NCBI GenBank assembly: GCA_038824035.1
Contig: JAWBBW010000024.1
Span: 1-15,155 of the forward strand
Direction of reading: 5' to 3'
DNA from: Desulfurococcaceae archaeon
GTDB lineage: Archaea; Thermoproteota; Thermoprotei_A; Sulfolobales; Desulfurococcaceae
DNA length: 15,155 nucleotides
Position 1 is the first letter of the stretch; each line of letters begins with the position of its first letter. This document shows, piece by piece, positions 3-12,131 of the stretch. The position numbers and the translations under genes were made by a program. Under the pieces are notes generated by a model. The model saw only the letters and a program-made list of their open reading frames with translations, was not told the DNA's origin and did no database searches.

Positions 3-173
3 ACAGTGAGTGGTAAAGTCGACGCAACGAGCTCTAGGGCGGCAGAAGCCGCTGGAACGGCCTCCACAGCGCTCTACCTAGGCGTGATAACATTGATATT
101 CGCATTATTGGCAACAGTGTTCGCGTTACTAGCATACATGACTGTTAAGAAATCAATAGCCGCTCCTAAATAA
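3..173 (+). CDS. 3' end (partial) of a C-terminally membrane-anchored surface protein, possibly S-layer/stalk-like
   Basis: Open frame from the window edge, not in the ORF track: TVSGKVDATSSRAAEAAGTASTA-LYLGVITLIFALLATVFALLAYM-TVKKSIAAPK*. Ala/Ser/Thr-rich helix, TM segment, basic tail, TAA at 171-173. Confidence 0.7.
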   Translation, partial: TVSGKVDATSSRAAEAAGTASTALYLGVITLIFALLATVFALLAYMTVKKSIAAPK

Positions 174-188
174 CCTGGTCTACATAAC

Positions 189-194
189 TTTTTT
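189..194 (+). terminator. Putative archaeal oligo-T terminator
   Basis: T6 run 16 nt after the stop at 173. Confidence 0.4.
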
Positions 195-341
195 CCTGAA
201 TCACACATATTTGTTTTCCCCAAGTCTCCATGGTCATGATTATCACATATTTTCATTACGTGGTTCATTCTCCTATTGATCACTAATATTTTAATACTCA
301 GTATCAGATTGTTTAATCGACAGGTTCAGGGGCTATTTGAA

Positions 342-1325: not shown

Positions 1326-2279
1326 TTGGATATCATCGGCATAGACACACTCGTCGTGGAAAGGGTTGCAAGGATACTTAGGAAAAACAATTCACGGTTA
1401 AATCAAATAGATGTGTGTGACACAAGGTTTTACCCACCCTGTAGCGAGGACGTTGAAAACACATTGAGGTATTTCATAACAATGGTGGCCATGGATCACA
1501 GGCTTAGTAGGCCTGGTAAACCATACGAGGCGTGCATCGAGGATGGGTGTTTCAAGGGATCAGAGCTATTATATAGACTGGGTATGAAGAAATACGAGGA
1601 AGACATGGAGTTTTTCAATCCAGTGAGGCTTGCATCAATAACAATAGAGGATATCAAGAAATGGCTGAGTATGGGTAAAACATCTCCACCTGATATCGAG
1701 ATACGGGCCATATTACTAAGGGACCTCGGCCAGAAAATCACAAAACTATACAACGGCGAAGTCTCCAAGGTATTGGAGATGTCGGGCAACAGGGTGTACG
1801 GGGATATCTTATCACCAGGTTTCGTGGACAATTTACGTGTATTTAAAGCATACGAAGACCCTGTTGCCAAGAAACCCCTTTTACTGGCTAAATTCCTGGT
1901 GAAACGTGGCTTGTTCAATCCAGTGGACCAATTAGATGTGGCCGTGGATAATCACCTATGTAGGATAGCGTACAGGCTAGGACTAGTGATGGTGTCCGGT
2001 AATCTCTGGGAGAAGATCAAGAGGGGGATAGAAGTATCATGGGAAGAGGACGTATTGCTGAGGCTTTTCGTGAAAAGGTCCTATAGATTATTATCGCAAA
2101 GAGCTGGGATATCGCCGGATATCATAGATGACCATTTCTGGCTAATGGGTAGAGGCATTTGTCTAAAGGACATTGAACCCATGTGTGGTAGGTGTATGTT
2201 CAAGAACACTTGTAGAGCGAGAAACAACGCGTCATTCATGGTTAACGAACACGTGCACTACAATACATGGTATTACTAG
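1326..2279 (+). CDS. Queuosine-salvage (QNG1/DUF2419)-like, HhH-GPD glycosylase-fold protein with C-terminal Fe-S cluster Cys motif
   Basis: DPVAKKPLL, VAVDNHLCRIAYRLGLV (like EndoIII VDTHxxRxxxRLG), EEDVLLR...IIDDHFWLMGR (QNG1-like C-terminal pattern), and C-x7-C-x2-C-x5-C (CLKDIEPMCGRCMFKNTC). Start codon TTG uncertain. Confidence 0.65.
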   Translation: MDIIGIDTLVVERVARILRKNNSRLNQIDVCDTRFYPPCSEDVENTLRYFITMVAMDHRLSRPGKPYEACIEDGCFKGSELLYRLGMKKYEEDMEFFNPVRLASITIEDIKKWLSMGKTSPPDIEIRAILLRDLGQKITKLYNGEVSKVLEMSGNRVYGDILSPGFVDNLRVFKAYEDPVAKKPLLLAKFLVKRGLFNPVDQLDVAVDNHLCRIAYRLGLVMVSGNLWEKIKRGIEVSWEEDVLLRLFVKRSYRLLSQRAGISPDIIDDHFWLMGRGICLKDIEPMCGRCMFKNTCRARNNASFMVNEHVHYNTWYY

Positions 2280-2288
2280 GTGACCTGA

Positions 2289-2654
2289 ATGGACATGGAG
2301 AACACCAGGTCGCGTAGTATTCGTGAAATACTTGGATTGAGCAAACTCGAAAGAGTGATAATGGAGTATTTCATAAGACATATAAGTGTTGGCGAAATAA
2401 TTGCTCTTATAGATCTGAAGGAGGAGATCAAGAAAAGAATTAAGGATGGCGAAGAAGACATTGTGAGGGAAAGAGATGATATATTGATAGCTAAGGAAAT
2501 AGACATAACAATGGCTTTGCTTGTAAAAAAAGGTTTCCTTGTTTATAGGAACGGGGTTTATAGCCTTTCACAATGGATCATAGATATCATAAAGTCGAAG
2601 AAAGGGGGGTTATACCCGGGAATGGCTAAGTCTATTAATGAGTTGTTAGATTAG
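2289..2654 (+). CDS. Small hypothetical protein, winged-helix-like
   Basis: 121 aa; LSKLERVIMEYF...EIDITMALLVKKGFLVYRNGVYSL resembles wHTH helix 1, recognition helix and wing. GGTGA Shine-Dalgarno at 2279-2283 overlaps the upstream stop. Confidence 0.65.
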   Translation: MDMENTRSRSIREILGLSKLERVIMEYFIRHISVGEIIALIDLKEEIKKRIKDGEEDIVRERDDILIAKEIDITMALLVKKGFLVYRNGVYSLSQWIIDIIKSKKGGLYPGMAKSINELLD

Positions 2655-2763: not shown

Positions 2764-4408
2764 ATGATGATCATAGTTGTCCTAACCATATTGTTGATCG
2801 TGAGCAATATCTTAACATATCAGTTCTCTGCAAGGGTTGAGAGAATAACTGAAACGACAACAATGATCACCACGCGCACGGAGACTATACTAGGACAGAG
2901 ATATCAACAACTACGTTGTTAACAACAATCCCCACAACTATAACCGTTCCGACAACAGTATCAACAACCACAACTATTACAACGACCACGCCCATCACGG
3001 TCACTAGGACGCTCACTGTCACGGAGACAAAGCCGGTCACAGTGGCAGAGGTTACAGGATTGCCATCTCCAGGTGAAATCCAGAGAATGTTCCCAACCAC
3101 TGTTACCATAGAAATACTTGACTCATTCGCAGGTATGCAGGAACACGCCTTCGAGGAGATCACCAGGGCATTCGAGGACTACACTGGTGGTAAGATAAGG
3201 ATTGAGAGAAGTTACACAGATGCTATTATATCGAAGCTAAGGCTACTAGCACTTGACGGTAGATTCGCGGAGATGCCACACATAGTGGGCATGATAGATG
3301 CCGATGTAGCCGCCCTCGTGGCGGCAGGTGCGTTGGAACCAATAGAGGAGTTCGTGATACTCGCGGGTCTTGATCCAAGCGATTTCCAAGCCGATGCATG
3401 GAGAGCGTCATTCATCAAGGATAGGCAATACTATGTGCCAATAGATATACAGCCGTTTGTATTGTATTTTAGGCTAGATTTCGCCAGGCAATACAATGTG
3501 TCACTACCACTGCCGGCTTGCCACTACTACGGCCTTCCATGTTGGAGAAAGCCCTTAGAGACAAGAGAAGACTTCATAGAATGGTTCATGGACGAGGTAA
3601 GTAAGAAAATGCCATTATGGCCGGCCACCCCTACCGGCATAGTTCCATTAGGTTTGCCAGGAGGCGGTTCATGGGAATTCTGGACAGTTGTTGAGACCAA
3701 TGTATTCGCGGGTGATGGGACAGACTGGGACCCGAAACCAGCGTTCACAAGTGAAGAGGCTAAAAAAGCCTACTGGTTCCTCAGAAAGATCGGGACAGTG
3801 CCAGATATCAGTTTGTTCATAGCTTGGTGGGTTCCAATGGATCGGTTGGATGCCTGTATGAGTAATCCACCATACGCTGGACAGGCCAGGGGCACATTTC
3901 TCTGGCCACATGGGACTTGGAAAATAGCGTTATGGGACTTCTACTCTACACAGCCATGTGAGTATGGCGTTATACCATGGCTTAGGGAGACTAGACCATT
4001 TGCCATGAGCCACGTGCTCGCTGTGACTAAGAGAGTGACAATGGCAGATGAATTGACTAAGAAGGCTATATCCATATTCCTGGCGTTTATGTTCCAGCCC
4101 AAATATCAGGGATTATGGGGTGTATACACAGCTCACGCCCCGCTACACTTAGCTCTCAGATATACTATATAACCCTTGCAAGGACAATGCTTGGCGAGAG
4201 AGAGGCTAATGCCAGGCTCATGGTAAGTTACCAAGTTCTTGAATATGGAGTTAAATATGCGCCAAGACATCCCAAGATTAGCACATTGTGGACTATACTA
4301 AATGACCAAATATGGCCAATGACATATCAAAAAGACGCTGACCCCGATTTCATGGCAGAGGTAATACAGGACAGGGTCTTCAGAGAGATGTTACCATTGA
4401 AATGGTGA
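2764..4408 (+). pseudogene. Carbohydrate ABC transporter substrate-binding protein (family 1) interrupted by two frameshifts
   Basis: ATG 2764 gives a signal anchor (MMIIVVLTILLIVSNILTY) and the start of a Thr-rich linker. A -1 shift near 2888 leads into ORF 2916-4172 (GALEPIEE, QYYVPIDIQPFVLYFRLD, typical SBP motifs). A second -1 shift near 4160-4169 leads into ORF 4115-4408 (APRHPKISTLWTILNDQI, SBP-like C-terminus). Confidence 0.75.
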
Positions 4409-4483: not shown

Positions 4484-5362
4484 TTACCGCGGTTTAAATG
4501 CTATAAACCCCATGGCCTTGTCGTCGAAATATATATTGATAAAGCCAGCTCGTTCAAGCCTGTTCTTCACTCCTTTGAATAAATTAAACCTGCCATGTTT
4601 ACCGGGTTCTCCCGTGTAATGAAATAATCGACCACCTTTTCTCAACACCCTGTATAGTTCTCTATAGAACTCCTCGCTGTACAATTGCCCAGTTGACCGC
4701 GTGAACCTGGGAGGATCATGTATGATCTTAGTGAAGAATTCGGAGGGTAGTTCGTAAACGGCTTTCGTGACATCGTCCTGGTATTTGACGATCCTATTGT
4801 CAGCCAGCGCCTTGCTCCAAGGGTTTCTCTCGGCTATCCACACAACGTTTTCATCGATTTCAAACGTGTATACAATTGATACCCCCTTACGTAGTGATGC
4901 TATCGATGTGTAGCCGAGCCCCATGCACGTGTCGAGGACAACGTCGCCCGGCCCTACGTTGATAGCTCTTATTTTCAATAACGTATCTTTCCAGGGATCA
5001 ATACCCATTATCCTATGCATGTGTATACCATTTATCTCTATTGTAGGGGCCTTGTCCATGCCTATTGCTTTTAACTTGTAATAACCATGCCCTGATGCCT
5101 TAACGACCTCGTATACACGTATCCCTGCATCACCTGTCTCGACAACCACGACTCCATCATCTTTACTGGGCCTTAGGTCGTCTATTTCCAACACAAGACC
5201 CCCTATTTCTACTACATTGCCACGAACACATATCTCTGACTCGGTGACTCCGAGATCCAATGTCGTTCTTACACATTTATTCAAGCCCCGTAAGCGATCT
5301 AGGAGGAAATTCGTGAACCAATACCCGTGGACCGGGTTAAAATCAATGCTTTTTACCAACAT
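4484..5362 (-). CDS. Class I SAM-dependent methyltransferase, archaeal COG2521-like
   Basis: Motif I VLDTCMGLGYT, motif II FEID, motif IV IIHDPPRF, LYRVLRKGGRLFHY, and the conserved-looking PTIEINGIHMH. ATG 5362 follows GGAAAGGT (alternative TTG 5380). Confidence 0.85.
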   Translation of the reverse strand: MLVKSIDFNPVHGYWFTNFLLDRLRGLNKCVRTTLDLGVTESEICVRGNVVEIGGLVLEIDDLRPSKDDGVVVVETGDAGIRVYEVVKASGHGYYKLKAIGMDKAPTIEINGIHMHRIMGIDPWKDTLLKIRAINVGPGDVVLDTCMGLGYTSIASLRKGVSIVYTFEIDENVVWIAERNPWSKALADNRIVKYQDDVTKAVYELPSEFFTKIIHDPPRFTRSTGQLYSEEFYRELYRVLRKGGRLFHYTGEPGKHGRFNLFKGVKNRLERAGFINIYFDDKAMGFIAFKPR

Positions 5363-5756
5363 CGCTACCTTTCCTTGCAATATGCATATCTAGTGGTAAG
5401 AATCTTGTCGCCTTGGAGAGTTTCAATAATTCTTTTCTGAACTCGATGATCCTGGTAGAGATCCCCTCGACCAGTATACTAGCCACATATCCATCTCCCA
5501 GTTTGAAAGTGCATTGCGCTTTCACGATATCAGCGTATTTCAATGTAAGATTGTTATCGATGGGTTTATTTGAATAGAACACTATGACCCCTGTACACAC
5601 ATGTTCCTCGATATCATGTGTGCTCTCGTGCATGTATTCCTCGATCGCGTTTGCCACAATGCTCGATCTATCGCACTTGAAATACTCAGCTAACTTGTCC
5701 AGTTTATCGGCTGTTACAGCCGGTATACTGATGCCGAATCTCCTCTTACAGCTCAT
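5343..5756 (-). CDS. CopG/NikR-like ribbon-helix-helix transcriptional regulator
   Basis: MSCKRRFGISIP...KLDKLAE...DRSSIVANAIEEY is an RHH domain, followed by a His/Cys linker and a NikR-C-like region. ATG 5756 overlaps the permease stop (ATGA). Confidence 0.85.
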   Translation of the reverse strand: MSCKRRFGISIPAVTADKLDKLAEYFKCDRSSIVANAIEEYMHESTHDIEEHVCTGVIVFYSNKPIDNNLTLKYADIVKAQCTFKLGDGYVASILVEGISTRIIEFRKELLKLSKATRFLPLDMHIARKGSDVGKKH

Positions 5757-6616
5757 CGTGGACTCCTCAATAAATATCCTATTATAAACATAGTTATTAA
5801 CACTAAGCCAGTCGTCCCCGTTGGGCTTAATCCAAGTATCAATGATAGGGAAAAGCCAGCAGAGCACGCGAAGATCGATACAAGTATTGTGGAGACCACG
5901 TGTTCTCTCAGATTATCCGCGTAATAAACAGCTGTGATCGATGGTAACAACACCATTACATGTTCCATTATGTAGCCACTGACCCTGAGCAAGGCTATTA
6001 CTGATAAGCCAAGTATAGTGTAGGCCAGCGCGTTAAGTAAGGATACCCTGACCCCGGCTATGCTCGCCGACACCTTGTCAATACTTGTGCTTATCAATTC
6101 ATATATGAAAAATGGCGTGGCTATTAACAACACTAATGCCAATGAAATGATTAAGATAACCTCTTCACTGGTTATTAAGAGAGGGTCTCCGAACACTATA
6201 CTGCTAACAGAGAACCTTACCGGTATACTTGTTAATACATAGTAGGATATTAGGACGCTTAGAGCAGATGTAGAAGAGACCAGGACAGCCGATGCCTTAC
6301 CAGGGTCGAAACCTCTCTCTATCAACATCATCGCCGAGTATATTATTACCAAGCCCATTAAAACAGCGTACACGTATAGATTAACACCTGTATAGTATTC
6401 CAACAAATACCCTAATACCACGCTGAGAAAGCCAGCGTGAGTGATGCCAGCGGCCATGAATTCCAGCCTCTTGTAGTAAACAATGACACTCGTGATCCCA
6501 AAGATTATGCCCATGGATATATATGCGAAGAACCTGCGTGGGTCGTGATAACATGTGATCGATAAAATCACTGACACAGATATGAACGCGATCAGTATTA
6601 ACCATTTCGATCTCAT
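5753..6616 (-). CDS. znuB: Metal (Zn/Mn) ABC transporter permease, ABC-3 family
   Basis: Highly hydrophobic; RLEFMAAGITHAGF, SIVFGDPLLI, SIDKVSASIAGV, LLPSITA motifs. ATGA overlap with the binding-protein gene. Metal specificity not provable. Confidence 0.85.
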   Translation of the reverse strand: MRSKWLILIAFISVSVILSITCYHDPRRFFAYISMGIIFGITSVIVYYKRLEFMAAGITHAGFLSVVLGYLLEYYTGVNLYVYAVLMGLVIIYSAMMLIERGFDPGKASAVLVSSTSALSVLISYYVLTSIPVRFSVSSIVFGDPLLITSEEVILIISLALVLLIATPFFIYELISTSIDKVSASIAGVRVSLLNALAYTILGLSVIALLRVSGYIMEHVMVLLPSITAVYYADNLREHVVSTILVSIFACSAGFSLSLILGLSPTGTTGLVLITMFIIGYLLRSPR

Positions 6617-7632
6617 TTTCTCCGCCTACCGAGTAAGCTCGGGATCATCGATATAGTCACTCCTATGATGACTCCGAGTAATAGTGTCAATGAAGTAGTG
6701 AAGTGGTCGACTGGTTTAAATGGGCATTGCCCGGCGCCCTGTATAGTCATGGTGATATTTCCTATGCCCATCTCCGAGATATTGCTGACCAGGTCTTTGA
6801 GTATACCTATCAACCCCTCTTCGTTACCCATGTCGATTGATATCAATGGCACATTATACCTCTCTGCTAGTTCTCTTAAAACACGTGATTCACTACTTGT
6901 AGCTGGGTACGTTGTGATGGCGAGTAACACTTTATTACTAGAGAACAATCTCTCCAATTCCTGGACGTGGTATGGAGTGGGTTCAATGCCCTCTTCTGGC
7001 TTAACAATCCACGTTGTCTTAAATCCCATCCATTCAACTAGGTATTGGAGCGGTGGCCTATCAATCACGACATTTCCTTTGAAAGTGCCCTTATAGGGCA
7101 ATATGTGGGTTGAGAGCTCTTTTATGACGGTGAGCATGTTTGATATATAGCACTCTGATTTACCCGGGTTAAGTTTTGACAATGTCTCGGAAATATTGAT
7201 CACGAATAACATATAGTTCAATGGATCTCTTATGGGTAGGTGTGGATTAGGTGTATTGGTAACCGGGTTTATCAATAGGGTCAATCCCGGTATCTCCATT
7301 AGATCTATCAAAATAGCCCTGATCTCGCCCTTCTCAACCAGCTCCCTTAGTCTGTGTTCAAACCCTGTGTGTCCAGTCGATACTATTAGATCAGCCTTTT
7401 CGAGCAAATCAATATCGTTTGGCCTTAATTGGTATTCATGTGGATCTATGCCCATTGGGATAAGCGATAAGACATCATCGCCTTGGCATAGTAATCGCTT
7501 GATCTCGATTGCGATTTCGGGGAAAGTGGAGACTATTATTAAGTCGTGATTACTCATCGCCGTGAGTGGCGCTGGCATTGATATTAGCATTATGGAGAGC
7601 ATAAACACCGGTATCAACACCGTCTCACCCAT
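6613..7632 (-). CDS. znuA: Metal ABC transporter substrate-binding protein, ZnuA/TroA family, with C-terminal TM anchor
   Basis: Signal peptide, LIPMGIDPHEYQLRPND, ADLIVSTG..FE, NPHLP, EPT; hydrophobic C-terminus ending in RRRK. ATG 7632 preferred (about 28 nt from a TATA) over GTG 7644. Confidence 0.85.
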   Translation of the reverse strand: MGETVLIPVFMLSIMLISMPAPLTAMSNHDLIIVSTFPEIAIEIKRLLCQGDDVLSLIPMGIDPHEYQLRPNDIDLLEKADLIVSTGHTGFEHRLRELVEKGEIRAILIDLMEIPGLTLLINPVTNTPNPHLPIRDPLNYMLFVINISETLSKLNPGKSECYISNMLTVIKELSTHILPYKGTFKGNVVIDRPPLQYLVEWMGFKTTWIVKPEEGIEPTPYHVQELERLFSSNKVLLAITTYPATSSESRVLRELAERYNVPLISIDMGNEEGLIGILKDLVSNISEMGIGNITMTIQGAGQCPFKPVDHFTTSLTLLLGVIIGVTISMIPSLLGRRRK

Positions 7633-7636
7633 TGAT

Positions 7637-7680
7637 TTGTGCACAATTATTTAAGGGGGTATTAAGTCTATTGTGCACAG
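7637..7680. promoter_or_regulatory. Compact divergent promoter with two palindromic operator-like sites (TTGTGCACAA / TTGTGCACAG)
   Basis: Palindromes at 7637-7646 and 7671-7680 flank TTTAAG (7650-7655, + strand TATA) and TTAATA (7660-7665, - strand TATA). Confidence 0.7.
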
Positions 7681-8448
7681 GTGGACTCATTGAAAATCAC
7701 TGTAAAAGACCTGGTAGTTAAGCGCGGCGATAAACCCGTGATAAGGGATATGAATGTTGAATTCCACGGACCAGGTATATATCAAGTGATAGGGCCCAAT
7801 GGTGTTGGCAAAACAACGCTTTTCCACACAATACTTGGTATTGTTAAGCCTGTGAAAGGAGAGGTTTTTGTCATGGATAGGAAAGTCGATAAATCAAGTG
7901 ATCTAAAGGGGGTGGTTGCATATATGCCACAGGATTTCATAATACCACCCGACATCGCTATCACGGTTTACGAATTCGTCGAGACCGGCTTAAAACTATA
8001 CACCAAGTGGCCAAGGCTTCTACGTAGTGCGCCCAGCACTGTCAACGTAGAGAACGCCTTGGAATCAGTAGGTATAAATAGGTATTTATGGGATAGGAAA
8101 TTATCCCATCTATCTGGTGGAGAGCTCAAGAGGGTTTTATTGGCTAGGGCCATAGCCGTCAACGCGCCGATAATGATCCTCGATGAGCCTTTCTCGGGCA
8201 TAGACCCTGGTGGTAGAATATCAATCGCGGAGGTCTTAGCCAATATCTCTAGGTCTAAGTTGTTATTAATATCTAACCACGACCCAGTGTTATTGCTTGA
8301 AAACACAAATAAGATCCTGGTAATGGGTTTTGGGGAATACATATACGGGGATCCAATTAGTGTATTGAATAATGAGGAATTAGCGAAGATCTATGGTGGC
8401 TGTGTCAAGGTTGTTGAAAAACATATGCATATATCTGATTGGCACTGA
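7681..8448 (+). CDS. znuC: Metal ABC transporter ATP-binding protein
   Basis: Walker A GPNGVGKTT, Q-loop YMPQ, signature LSGGE, Walker B ILDEPFSGID, H-loop SNHD; divergent from the znuA/znuB-like genes. Confidence 0.9.
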   Translation: MDSLKITVKDLVVKRGDKPVIRDMNVEFHGPGIYQVIGPNGVGKTTLFHTILGIVKPVKGEVFVMDRKVDKSSDLKGVVAYMPQDFIIPPDIAITVYEFVETGLKLYTKWPRLLRSAPSTVNVENALESVGINRYLWDRKLSHLSGGELKRVLLARAIAVNAPIMILDEPFSGIDPGGRISIAEVLANISRSKLLLISNHDPVLLLENTNKILVMGFGEYIYGDPISVLNNEELAKIYGGCVKVVEKHMHISDWH

Positions 8449-9845: not shown

Positions 9846-9874
9846 TTTAAACCCATATAGGTAAAAATGGGTTT
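9846..9874 (+). promoter_or_regulatory. TATA box and inverted repeat upstream of nreA
   Basis: TTTAAA 9846-9851, 28 nt before ATG 9879; AAACCCAT (9849-9856)-N10-ATGGGTTT (9867-9874). Confidence 0.5.
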
Positions 9875-9878
9875 GTGG

Positions 9879-11132
9879 ATGAGTAATCGTCTAGTTTTCA
9901 ATGGATCGATGTGTATCACATGCAGGGGAAAGGGTTTATGCGGTCTTGCATATTGCCCTGTCATAGCCAAGGCTAAGGCTAGTTTGAGGCTCAGGAACGT
10001 GGCTTTGTCAAATGTTATCGAGGGGTCTTCCCCACCCTCCCTTTTTGTGGGTAGAATTGGCTACCCATATGTGAGGGCTGGGCCCTCCACACCTCCTTTA
10101 ATAGGTGACACGGCTATTTTCGATTACCCCGAGAATTGGTTGGGGAAAAGAATTGAAGAGATCCTCGAATACAGGTGGCTACTTGTTACAGGGTTTAAGG
10201 TTGTCGATGTGAGGAAACCGAGTGATAAGGTCCTCGATGAATCCAGGTTAATAGCGCTTAGTTCTAGGCCAGTGGATGTCGTCATTGTTCTTAGCAAGCC
10301 TCCCAAACCCACGATCTCGCTTAACGATCACGAGCCACCACAGGGCCCTCGCTCAATGTTGGAGAACTTAAGGATTCTCAGTAACCCGGTTATCCCTAGG
10401 CCTGTTGACAGGGTTTACAATGATGTCGATCTACCGGCATCAGATGCCGTGGTGTATCTATATGAACACGGTATATCGGTTTCACATATACAGAAGATAC
10501 TAAGCATGGGTGGTCTAGGCGTTAAGGGGCAAAGAAGGCTTGTCCCAACTAGGTGGAGTATCACGGCAGTTGACAGTGTGCTATGTAAGCACCTGGCCAA
10601 GGAGATCAAGAGATATGGCGTTATCAACGAGATAATGGTTTTCGAGAAAAAGATCCACGATAACTTATTCATAGCAATACTGTATCCGGCTAAATGGAGT
10701 TATGAGTGGTTAGAGGCGTGGTGGCCCGGCTCTATTTGGAATCCTGGACAAGGCGATGTCGTCGTGGAGGGGGATTACGAGGACTATTTCGGTAGGACAA
10801 CGTATCCGGGTATAGGTGGTTGTTATTACGCCAGTATGTTGGCTACTCTGGAATACCTGAGGGGCGCTAAGAGACAGGCCTCGGCGATCTTGATGAGGGA
10901 GATCTACCCGGGTTTCAATATACCGATAGGTGTGTGGTTTGTTAGAGAGTCCTGTAGAGCCATGTTTAAATCAGGCCCTGTTCTCAGGACAAACGATCTA
11001 AGGGAGGTCTATGAATTCCTGGATAAGGAAACCAGGTTAGGAGCTGGTAAATGGTTTTCATCTTCAAGGCTGATCCAGAGGATCGCGTGGACTAGGAGGA
11101 TCGGTGAATATTTCAAGCCACGAGGCCCTTGA
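9879..11132 (+). CDS. nreA: Nre family archaeal DNA repair protein (DUF650/DUF651)
   Basis: N-terminal CITCRGKGLCGLAYCP, GSSPPSLFVGRIGYP, RRLVPTRWSITAVD, GGCYYA, REIYPGFNIPIGVWFVRE, and a PIP-like C-terminus. Alternative ATG at 9867. Confidence 0.9.
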   Translation: MSNRLVFNGSMCITCRGKGLCGLAYCPVIAKAKASLRLRNVALSNVIEGSSPPSLFVGRIGYPYVRAGPSTPPLIGDTAIFDYPENWLGKRIEEILEYRWLLVTGFKVVDVRKPSDKVLDESRLIALSSRPVDVVIVLSKPPKPTISLNDHEPPQGPRSMLENLRILSNPVIPRPVDRVYNDVDLPASDAVVYLYEHGISVSHIQKILSMGGLGVKGQRRLVPTRWSITAVDSVLCKHLAKEIKRYGVINEIMVFEKKIHDNLFIAILYPAKWSYEWLEAWWPGSIWNPGQGDVVVEGDYEDYFGRTTYPGIGGCYYASMLATLEYLRGAKRQASAILMREIYPGFNIPIGVWFVRESCRAMFKSGPVLRTNDLREVYEFLDKETRLGAGKWFSSSRLIQRIAWTRRIGEYFKPRGP

Positions 11133-11148
11133 AATCCAGGTGTTCACA

Positions 11149-11955
11149 GTGGTTTTTAGGAAATTCCTGGTTCACAGCGTTTTCGTTGACAAGGCTCTCT
11201 CTAAGTCGGGTCTACCGGATTTAACATATGCGTTAAACCCATATATCGGTTGTTCTCATGGATGTGTATACTGTTACGCCAGGCTATACACGAGGGATAA
11301 GAGGGTCTCCGAGAACTGGGGTAGAATCGTACTGGTGAAAGAGAATTTGCCGAAAGTGCTTGAGTGGGAAACGAGGGCGTTGAGAAAAGGAGTGGTTGGT
11401 GTTGGCACAATAACGGATGCTTATCAACCAGTGGAAGCGGTATACAGGGTTACGAGGAGGTGTTTAGAGATATTGTTGAAAGCTGGTTTCGAGATCAGTA
11501 TACAGACGAAAAACCCCCTTGTACTCAGGGATATGGACCTCCTAGCTGAGCACAGGGATAAAATAGACATAGGGTTCACGATAACCAGCCTGGATAGAGA
11601 GGTGGCTAGGTTTATAGAGCCGAACTCGCCATCGCCGATGTCAAGGGCTAATGCATTACGCGAGATCAGGGAGATTGGTATTAAGACCTGGTTATTCTAC
11701 GGCCCCATAATACCTGGTCTAAACGATGATTACGAAACCATGAAAGCCATTACCGAGATCGCCGCTGACACGGGTTCAACGCTATACTATGACCCGCTCC
11801 ACGTTAAAGCGTTCATGAGGGATCAAAAGCACCCACTTAACCCATATCTATACAGGATGACGAGTAATTGGAGAAAACAATTAGAAAAAAAGCTCATAAA
11901 CTTATGTATGAAACATGGGTTAACGTGTAAACCAGGTTTCAGGGGGGATGCATAG
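11149..11955 (+). CDS. Radical SAM protein, spore photoproduct lyase-like family
   Basis: LNPYIGCSHGCVYCYA (CxxxCxxC), GTITDAYQPVE, IQTK..LVLRD, EP...P..R, PIIPGLND. GTG 11149 has AGGTG 6 nt upstream (ORF track start 11104). Confidence 0.85.
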   Translation: MVFRKFLVHSVFVDKALSKSGLPDLTYALNPYIGCSHGCVYCYARLYTRDKRVSENWGRIVLVKENLPKVLEWETRALRKGVVGVGTITDAYQPVEAVYRVTRRCLEILLKAGFEISIQTKNPLVLRDMDLLAEHRDKIDIGFTITSLDREVARFIEPNSPSPMSRANALREIREIGIKTWLFYGPIIPGLNDDYETMKAITEIAADTGSTLYYDPLHVKAFMRDQKHPLNPYLYRMTSNWRKQLEKKLINLCMKHGLTCKPGFRGDA

Positions 11956-12053: not shown

Positions 12054-12131
12054 GGGCCCGTCGCCTAGCCAGGATAGGGCGCCGGCCTCCGGAGCCGGAG
12101 GACCCGGGTTCAAATCCCGGCGGGCCCGCCA
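12054..12131 (+). tRNA. tRNA-Arg (anticodon CCG), intronless, CCA encoded
   Basis: Acceptor GGGCCCG/CGGGCCC, D arm GCCTAGCCAGGATAGGGC, anticodon arm CCGGC-CTCCGGA-GCCGG (CCG at 12089-12091), T arm CCGGG-TTCAAAT-CCCGG, G-CCA end. Confidence 0.97.

Follow-up and report, generated by a model that had tools for sequence, protein, structure and literature searches.

A protein gene at positions 1326 to 2279 of contig JAWBBW010000024.1 from a Desulfurococcaceae archaeon (GenBank assembly GCA_038824035.1; the whole stretch of 15,155 nucleotides that was analysed is called the window here) encodes a 317-residue protein which, as judged from sequence comparison and a predicted model, combines the architecture of the salvage enzyme Qng1 with the Asp helix and the iron-sulfur (Fe-S) loop of the DNA glycosylase endonuclease III (EndoIII). 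The protein belongs to a distinct archaeal clade of a large and unnamed Fe-S-bearing Qng1-like superfamily. Regarding its function, we favour, with belief and doubt about evenly balanced, an N-glycosidase of the Qng1 type whose substrate would be a free guanine-type nucleotide. A 7-deazaguanine nucleotide of the archaeosine or preQ0/preQ1 type from tRNA turnover is the favoured candidate for the substrate, and is proposed only tentatively.

To our knowledge, Qng1 has so far been known from eukaryotes and a few bacteria, and only as an enzyme of queuosine salvage. Here the Qng1 fold would be joined to the Fe-S loop of DNA-repair glycosylases in archaea without queuosine, and the family may bridge, in evolutionary terms, the enzymes of base-excision repair and those of nucleotide salvage. 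It is also a candidate answer to the question of how archaea that bear arcTGT, and in which QueD and QueE are not found, obtain their 7-deazaguanine base. Moreover, its gene shows a conserved and unexpected link to that of PolB1-binding protein 2 (PBP2), which belongs to the replicative polymerase of crenarchaea. In the literature searched, supplements being outside the scope, no account of an Fe-S-bearing or archaeal Qng1 homologue was found. As the family is conserved, compact and of thermophilic origin, its members should be easy to express and assay.

Fold, motifs and family of the protein

Relatives of the protein share its start point and its length, many of them also having 317 residues. 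A word-indexed search retrieved 354 homologues (E<=0.001), the 120 best of which are 306-348 residues long. Where names are given, these homologues are called "iron-sulfur cluster loop", "hypothetical protein" or, once, "queuosine salvage family protein", and the organisms named among them are Desulfurococcus, Staphylothermus, Thermogladius, Thermosphaera and Ignisphaera. Conservation was mainly assessed in an alignment of 27 sequences with 45-65% identity to the query. In all 27, the Lys pair K182/K183 of an AKKP motif (nucleotides 1869-1874), the triplet D208-N209-H210 of a VDNH motif and the four Cys of a C-x7-C-x2-C-x5-C loop are invariant, as are D268, D269, W272, G275, R276, E308, T314, W315 and Y317 in the C-terminal part, D57, H58, R59, S61, R62 and G78 around a hairpin whose strands lie at residues 68-71 and 74-77 of the model, and G165, D178 and P179 of an interrupted helix-hairpin-helix. 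All 27 proteins stop at one shared column, with T-W-[YF]-Y. The original prediction had pointed to the Lys of AKKP, the Asp of VDNH and the spacing of the four Cys; the translation has each of them at the place given and, with their invariance among the relatives, this observation is confirmed as going beyond chance. In the Cys loop, a single conserved basic residue precedes a conserved acidic residue (CL[RK]D). The spacing between its second and third Cys is not universal, some relatives having a 16-residue insert with further Cys at this point.

An AlphaFold2 model built from a 27-row alignment has a predicted local distance difference test score (pLDDT) of 94 and a predicted template modelling score (pTM) of 0.92. 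When this model is compared with the PDB by Foldseek, the top ten matches are all Qng1/DUF2419 structures (E 3e-13 to 3e-11, template modelling score [TM] 0.74-0.78), and MutY and EndoIII come next (E >= 2.6e-5, TM 0.42-0.52). Alignment with VIA-align 2 to the untagged enzyme of Sphaerobacter thermophilus (StQng1, PDB 7uk3) gives Z 31.8 and a root-mean-square deviation of 2.1 A over 279 residues; it extends from residues 2..317 of the model on 22..323 of the 7uk3 chain, residue 317 being paired with the last residue, 323. For the other structures, Z amounts to 30.3 with human QNG1, 17.0 with EndoIII, about 15.5 with MutY and 15.5 with Pa-AGOG. The Qng1-specific elements recognized in the model are an N-terminal strand paired with strand 221-223, a hairpin at 68-77, a helix at 226-233 and the C-terminal tail. 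Four of the five family-specific insertions described for Qng1 can be recognized in the secondary structure of the model, and the insert in the helix-hairpin-helix is present but not as a beta-hairpin; according to the work on the Qng1 structures, such insertions block the DNA cleft (PMC9881137).

Profile searches are consistent with this mixed character. The sole Pfam match is PF10343 (Q_salvage; E 6e-5, residues 89-155), no NCBIfam model matches the protein, and neither PF00730 (HhH-GPD) nor PF09171 (AGOG) matches it at E<=10 in Pfam. A search of PDB sequences with the single protein gave nothing meaningful. With the family profile, the best PDB sequences are EndoIII chains (8a5f, 4unf; E 3e-5), in a match that spans the Asp helix (PVDxHxxRxxxRxG) and the cluster loop (GRxxCxxxxPxCxxCxxxxxC) and in which the D208 region is aligned with PVDTHVHRV of EndoIII; the Qng1 chains reach only E 0.3 (residues 41-154) in the same search. 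The host genome encodes a separate Nth-type protein (HhH-GPD, 76 bits) and an AGOG (171 bits) elsewhere. The label "QNG1-like" given in the original prediction is borne out by the Foldseek and VIA-align results and by the PF10343 match, albeit below its cut-off. The mixture of Qng1 and EndoIII features that it had suggested also stands, the best fold being that of Qng1 and the Asp helix and Fe-S loop being matched to EndoIII by sequence. That the protein would not be an ordinary Nth-type glycosylase is likewise upheld by the lack of a PF00730 match, the interrupted helix-hairpin-helix and the separate AGOG and Nth-type genes.

The protein is part of a much wider group. When 1.84 billion representatives were searched exhaustively with HMMER, 372 clusters were retrieved at E<=0.001. 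Among the representatives of single-domain size that were listed, 81 of 92 keep the four-Cys loop and 80 of 92 end in two aromatic residues. In a superfamily alignment of 93 sequences, R127 and R246 are invariant, K182 is found in 91, K183 in 92, D208 in 91, W272 in 90, each of the four Cys in 81-83, T314 in 83 and a final Tyr or Phe in 89. Position 268 is Asp in 70 of these sequences and His in 18. The clade of the protein is marked by DHRxSR (DHR[LT]), DNH, DDxxW and the TWYY end. A scan of 40 more distant representatives with PF10343 gave at least 25 bits for 20 of them, with a maximum of 57.3 bits. Longer relatives of about 650-840 residues (P0148, P0159, P0163, P0173 and others) consist of N-terminal transmembrane helices, a domain of about 250 residues with no Pfam match and a Qng1-like domain in which the Cys loop is missing and the K-K pair, the Asp, the Trp and the aromatic C-terminus are kept.

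Within the phylum, the gene is found in 98 of 401 sampled genomes, the families of which were coded f1, f2 and so on. It occurs in 14/15 genomes of f1, the family of the host, and in 13/13 of f2, 5/5 of f3, 3/3 of f7, 21/23 of f19, 12/12 of f27, 4/4 of f22 and 5/5 of f29. No copy was found in the 15 genomes of f4, which belongs to the same order, or in the 56 of f10.

Proposed mechanism and gene neighbourhood

Structures of Qng1 are available for the bacterial (StQng1) and human enzymes (PDB 7uk3, 7u07, 7u91 and 7ugk), 7u91 being a complex with queuosine 5'-monophosphate, the nucleotide cleaved by this N-glycosidase (Hung et al. 2023, PMC9881137). In StQng1, the nucleophile is D231, the ribose is oriented by K199 and the 7-deazaguanine ring is held by D298 and W302; the cyclopentenediol pocket consists of W48, Y93, W94 and W299, and R80, K233 and Q306 are the phosphate ligands (PMC9881137). 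The chain ends with Y323, whose carboxylate lies at the active site, and the enzyme becomes inactive when a tag is added to its C-terminus (PMC9881137). Residue equivalences were drawn from HMMER alignments of two intermediate relatives, P0166 and P0252, to PDB sequences, together with the family alignments. On this basis, D231-Y232-K233 of StQng1 correspond to D208-N209-H210, D298 to D268, W299 to D269, W302 to W272, Q306 to R276, Y93 and W94 to [A/S]79 and [D/E]80, and Y323 to Y317. Through P0166, D208 is also paired with FADYRL of human QNG1, and the segment LDDLLWTYGR of P0166 is aligned with VDWLLWDEGQ of StQng1, in a low-scoring HMMER segment. The beta2-beta3 hairpin was placed by alignments to StQng1 residues 62-94 via both relatives. 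The Pro and the Lys are 18 residues apart in this protein and 17 in StQng1 (P182 to K199); K182/K183, which lie where the helix that follows the helix-hairpin-helix insert begins, would accordingly be the counterpart of K199.

The motifs, their conservation, the fold and the distribution are results of the analysis, and the residue roles, the free-nucleotide substrate, the Fe-S cluster and the base released are inferred. By homology with Qng1, the substrate, a nucleoside or free nucleoside 5'-monophosphate, would be bound in a closed cleft between the two lobes, with D268 and W272 gripping a guanine-type ring, the ribose being positioned by K182/K183 and by the terminal carboxylate of Y317, and the phosphate possibly being held by H210 and R276. 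D208 would then break the glycosidic bond to release the base and ribose 5-phosphate, and the four Cys would hold a structural Fe-S cluster coming from an EndoIII-like ancestor. Since the aromatic cyclopentenediol pocket is replaced by the small or acidic residues [A/S]79, [D/E]80 and D269, the substrate is probably not queuosine; these residues would suit a small or a positively charged substituent. The fixed C-terminus, shared by all 27 close relatives and aromatic at its last two positions in most single-domain representatives, is as a functional terminal carboxylate predicts. That ordinary base-excision-repair enzymes (AGOG and HhH-GPD) are encoded elsewhere is counted in favour of a free nucleotide. 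The distant relative P0269 is fused to a piece of PfkB kinase, which suggests a route of phosphorylation followed by cleavage.

Several observations weigh against a free nucleotide as the substrate. The PF10343 match (23.2 bits) lies under the 25-bit gathering cut-off, and the equivalence of D268 and W272 comes from a low-scoring HMMER segment and the overall fold alignment, not from superposition. The Fe-S loop, which contacts the DNA backbone in EndoIII and MutY, is not explained by a free-nucleotide substrate although it is kept in most of the superfamily, and the distant relative P0251 is fused to a GIY-YIG nuclease domain (64 bits). Finally, the steadiest neighbour of the gene is not a nucleotide or tRNA gene but that of PBP2, a replicative-polymerase subunit, which leaves room for a DNA-linked role.

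The PBP2 gene begins 9 nucleotides downstream, is the only PF22511 match in the host genome, and is probably co-transcribed with the Qng1-like gene. In named loci from Desulfurococcaceae, Thermosphaera, Staphylothermus, Thermogladius, Ignisphaera, Pyrodictiaceae, Aeropyrum and Acidilobaceae, taken with 6-kb flanks (L059-L138), a PBP2 gene lies at most 2 kb from the Qng1-like gene in 66 of 80; it is also found in 20 of 30 loci with 1.5-kb flanks. It is immediately downstream on the same strand in 32 of the 66, upstream on the same strand in 11, downstream on the opposite strand in 13, downstream on the same strand without being adjacent in 9 and otherwise placed in 1, and the linkage spans Desulfurococcaceae, Ignisphaera, Pyrodictiaceae, Aeropyrum and Acidilobaceae. 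After PBP2, the two most frequent neighbour families occur in 38 and 35 of the 80 loci. In the available text of the paper describing PBP2, its gene environment is called variable, so that the linkage appears to be unreported there (Yan et al., PMC5418573). A complex prediction of the Qng1-like protein with PBP2 returned a score of 0.00, the controls not having been run, and is evidence neither for nor against an interaction. The adjacency of PBP1 and ribokinase genes has been reported (PMC5418573); no PBP1-like small open reading frame with an acidic tail was found beside the PfkB kinase genes of the host genome. Outside the order of the host, no universal neighbour was found in 20 further loci.

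It can be hypothesized that the protein is a polymer-directed glycosylase, acting on DNA or possibly on RNA or tRNA and perhaps tied to replication, which would remove a guanine-derived lesion or modification together with the PolB1 holoenzyme. In this reading, contact with the backbone would be made through the Fe-S loop, as in EndoIII and MutY, and the tail would move aside or read a flipped base. Such a role, which we consider improbable without being negligible, is favoured by the match of both the loop and the Asp helix to EndoIII, by the retention of the loop in 81-83 of the 93 superfamily sequences, by the GIY-YIG fusion, and by the linkage to the only PBP2 gene of the genome, which is maintained in several arrangements and approached by no other neighbour family. 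In f29 and f47, a TIM barrel of the AP_endonuc_2 type is also encoded directly downstream, but this protein is best described as CbiR-like (40 bits) and reaches only 24 bits with the nfo model, the cut-off of which is 130. Against a polymer substrate, the Z score with Qng1 is about twice that with the best DNA glycosylase, the model contains the Qng1 elements occupying the DNA cleft, and the extreme C-terminus does not vary in position; the helix-hairpin-helix is interrupted, PF00730 is unmatched and the cluster loop has a single conserved basic residue before an acidic one. The family is mildly basic (median isoelectric point 8.4, net charge +3, compared with +11 for AGOG), a weakly discriminating property. 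The distributions of the two genes also argue against it: the Qng1-like gene is missing from the 15 genomes of f4, and Sulfolobus acidocaldarius, a control that was not searched for the gene, has PBP2; Thermoproteales are reported to be devoid of PBP2 (PMC5418573), and f19 and f27, which have been neither identified nor searched for PBP2, almost always carry the gene.

Other genes of the window have been located as well (Table 1). A gene for a solute-binding protein of the SBP_bac_8 type, with a long N-terminal stretch rich in Thr, Val and Pro, sits between PBP2 and a methyltransferase gene and is inserted relative to the gene order of relatives. The S-adenosylmethionine methyltransferase (298 residues, with a DPPRF motif) has only weak matches in Pfam and NCBIfam, to a DNA methylase (E 3e-4) and to polyamine aminopropyltransferase (about 30 bits); its homologues adjoin PBP2 in 23 of the 80 loci. 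The Znu cluster further on is syntenic with the block of Qng1-like and PBP2 genes in many Desulfurococcaceae loci. An NreA gene (Nre_N and Nre_C, E 1e-101) and a radical SAM gene (PF04055, with a weak DUF1848 match) share 29 nucleotides at the start of the latter, and the two possibly form a DNA-repair gene pair.

Table 1. Location of the features in the window (positions counted from its first nucleotide)
Feature	Positions	Strand	Remarks
Gene of the Fe-S Qng1-like protein	1326..2279	+	317 aa; TTG start, stop 2277-2279; open reading frame and translation
Clade signature D57-H58-R59-x-S61-R62 with beta-hairpin (residues 61-78)	1494..1559	+	counterpart of the Qng1-specific beta2-beta3 insertion
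Interrupted helix-hairpin-helix: P164-G165, 16-residue insert, D178-P179, K182-K183 (AKKP)	1815..1874	+	
D208-N209-H210 (VDNH), predicted catalytic Asp opening helix 209-218	1947..1955	+	invariant 27/27
D268-D269-x-x-W272-x-x-G275-R276, predicted base-binding helix	2127..2153	+	invariant 27/27
CLKDIEPMCGRCMFKNTC, C279-x7-C287-x2-C290-x5-C296, predicted [4Fe-4S] cluster loop	2160..2213	+	translation; 27/27
C-terminal tail E308-H309...T314-W315-Y316-Y317	2247..2276	+	EHVHYNTWYY, then stop; ends at the last residue
PBP2 gene	2289..2654	+	PF22511, E 3.3e-11
SBP_bac_8 solute-binding protein	2916-4172	+	
DPPRF methyltransferase	4484-5380	-	
Ribbon-helix-helix/NikR-like regulator, ZnuB (ABC-3), ZnuA and ABC ATPase	5343-8448		
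NreA	9867-11132	+	
Radical SAM protein	11104-11955	+	
tRNA-Arg (CCG)	12054-12131	+	

The 7-deazaguanine question

Returning to the free-nucleotide reading, the identity of the base has to be considered separately. The host genome, which is 99.67% complete, encodes arcTGT (TgtA, 516 bits) and a QueC-like protein (91.7 bits with the QueC equivalog, the cut-off being 150). PTPS/QueD, QueF and a YhhQ-type transporter were not found in it, and the QueE model TIGR03365 gave only generic radical-SAM matches of at most 22 bits; as all 14 control genomes also give such generic matches, the absence of QueE is provisional. The presence of arcTGT in a genome in which QueD and QueE are not found fits a need for salvage, and queuosine is an unlikely natural substrate since arcTGT is the only such enzyme of the host. 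The conservation of D268 and W272, counterparts of the Asp and Trp by which Qng1 holds the deazaguanine, is a hint in the same direction. PTPS is absent from 13 of the 15 other genomes of the family, and within the order the gene occurs in 26 of 27 PTPS-negative and 12 of 33 PTPS-positive genomes, a comparison that covers few independent lineages. A transporter adjoining a bacterial qng1 gene was found, unexpectedly, to carry preQ0 and preQ1 (PMC11130926). The QueC-like gene of the host mentioned above stands alone (G000:C17:26428-27117; L032 1438-2229), matches PF06508 at 120 bits and has a Staphylococcal-nuclease-like open reading frame upstream; it could serve either to make preQ0 from a salvaged intermediate or to make archaeosine.

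The protein might be the missing base-releasing enzyme of an archaeal 7-deazaguanine salvage route, a suggestion that we regard as doubtful. Desulfurococcaceae and their kin would be deazaguanine auxotrophs, taking the archaeosine or preQ0 base out of tRNA nucleotides of their own or of foreign origin and re-inserting it; the charged formamidine group would be recognized by D269 and D/E80, and the ancestral Fe-S cluster would have been retained.

A number of results weigh against this 7-deazaguanine part. The original prediction had named co-occurrence with arcTGT/queCDE as a check, and for PTPS/QueD no phylum-wide link emerged: in the 401 genomes, gene and PTPS are found together in 39, the gene alone in 59, PTPS alone in 128 and neither in 175, so that PTPS is absent from 59 of 98 carriers and from 175 of 303 non-carriers. 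TgtA, encoded in 360 of the 401 genomes, is nearly universal and hence cannot discriminate. In f16, f20, f23 and f30 taken together, TgtA is present in 71/73 genomes, the gene in 1/93 and PTPS in 10/93, and in f3, f19 and f27 both the gene and PTPS are present. PTPS (PF01242) is in itself an imperfect proxy for QueD and for de novo synthesis of preQ0. In a genome of the same family (G046), the sole PTPS homologue (L148, C1:1326500-1339000) clusters with MptA, beta-RFAP synthase, a dihydropteroate-synthase-like gene and a flavoprotein gene, that is, in a pterin pathway cluster, and PF01242 matches can thus not be read as QueD without their context. Regarding re-insertion, the canonical arcTGT does not take the archaeosine base (PMC5485725), and models of crenarchaeal arcTGTs left the use of this base open (PMC5485725, PMC5699537).

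With a free-nucleotide mechanism left unchanged, the enzyme could alternatively serve to clear another modified or damaged guanine nucleotide arising from RNA turnover at high temperature, for example one with an N2-methylated, wyosine-type, N7-methylated or oxidized base, the ribose 5-phosphate being recovered and the nucleotide pool kept clean. Such house-cleaning, which seems unlikely to us, shares the chemistry set out above and competes only with the 7-deazaguanine part. The lack of a phylum-wide link to the absence of PTPS/QueD speaks for it, as does the predicted polar or acidic substituent pocket, different in shape from that of Qng1. So do lineage-specific neighbours that are other kinds of enzymes of RNA modification or nucleotide metabolism, namely the DPPRF methyltransferase, TRM5/TYW2 (12 of the 80 loci) and TYW3 (16 of the 80), the latter two in an arrangement of the Acidilobaceae/Aeropyrum type, as well as ThiI and, in f31, a HAD hydrolase (phosphatase). 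However, each of these neighbours is limited to one lineage or arrangement, no precedent enzyme is known, and D268, which is predicted to read N1-H and a free N2 amine as D298 does in Qng1, would be poorly suited to N2-methylated or tricyclic wyosine bases. The hypothesis that the protein is a binding or regulatory protein, or performs some other chemistry with the same fold, is compatible with the generic names of the homologues, none of which has had its function tested, and with the lack of an NCBIfam model, but it is very improbable, as the invariance of the Lys, the Asp, the base-stacking Trp and the C-terminal tail in 27/27 relatives, nearly maintained in the 93, would be hard to explain without catalysis.

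Concerning the neighbours themselves, one BLAST cluster labelled "TRM5/TYW2" (35 of the 80 loci) was rejected because it merges two unrelated methyltransferase groups, only the 12 loci above having the true TRM5/TYW2. In f19 and f27, the next gene downstream, encoded on the same strand, is a DUF711 (PF05167) gene in 5 of 6 loci (L037-L039, L041, L042). On the opposite side of the Qng1-like gene, f19 loci have a ThiS/Urm1-like gene and a weak QueD-like gene; the latter (23-27 bits, cut-off 89) adjoins the homologue in 3 of 3 loci examined and is a further indirect hint at 7-deazaguanine.

Comparison with known systems

Among archaeal enzymes, AGOG (Pa-AGOG, PDB 1xqo/1xqp) shares the common fold with the protein (232-234 residues aligned). 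Both are purine-directed members of the helix-hairpin-helix superfamily, and some relatives have a precomputed PF09171 match; the protein itself has none, and the true AGOG of the host is encoded elsewhere. For AGOG, which was not itself examined for these features, no mention of a four-Cys loop or of a conserved tail at the terminus was met. The likeness to EndoIII and MutY (PDB 2abk, 1p59, 8a5f and MutY entries) comprises a common core fold (Z 15-17 over 210-224 residues) and, by sequence, the Asp helix and the four-Cys loop. In contrast to these glycosylases, a 16-residue insert parts the hairpin P164-G165 from K182, about 100 extra residues make up the Qng1-type insertions and the tail, and the first two Cys are separated by seven residues instead of six. 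The loop also differs from that of EndoIII in its single conserved basic residue beside a conserved acidic one.

Other Fe-S Qng1-like clades, found in prokaryotes, for the most part share the K-K pair, the Asp, the Trp, the two Arg, the four-Cys loop and a T-x-aromatic-Tyr end. Where the clade described here has DHR[LT], they have CHQT or N/L-F-x-F; DNH is replaced by DYH, and D268-D269 by H-Y or D-x, with HYxxW occurring among them.

The closest known system is Qng1, with which the protein has in common a two-lobe fold over nearly its full length, an interrupted helix-hairpin-helix, with an invariant Lys that would be the counterpart of K199, the predicted catalytic Asp, an Asp-x3-Trp base-binding motif and a conserved aromatic tail at the C-terminus. 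Identity amounts to only 16-18%, and the four-Cys loop of the protein forms an insertion of about 24 residues that separates the last, base-binding helix from the tail; the term "iron-sulfur" occurs 0 times in the available text of the Qng1 paper (PMC9881137). Of the aromatic pocket of StQng1, Y93, W94 and W299 are replaced as described above, the position of W48 being unmapped. The host is an archaeon with arcTGT, and thus with archaeosine at position 15, and not a user of queuosine. If a 7-deazaguanine base were indeed released, the archaeal route would parallel the salvage of queuine by Qng1 in eukaryotes.

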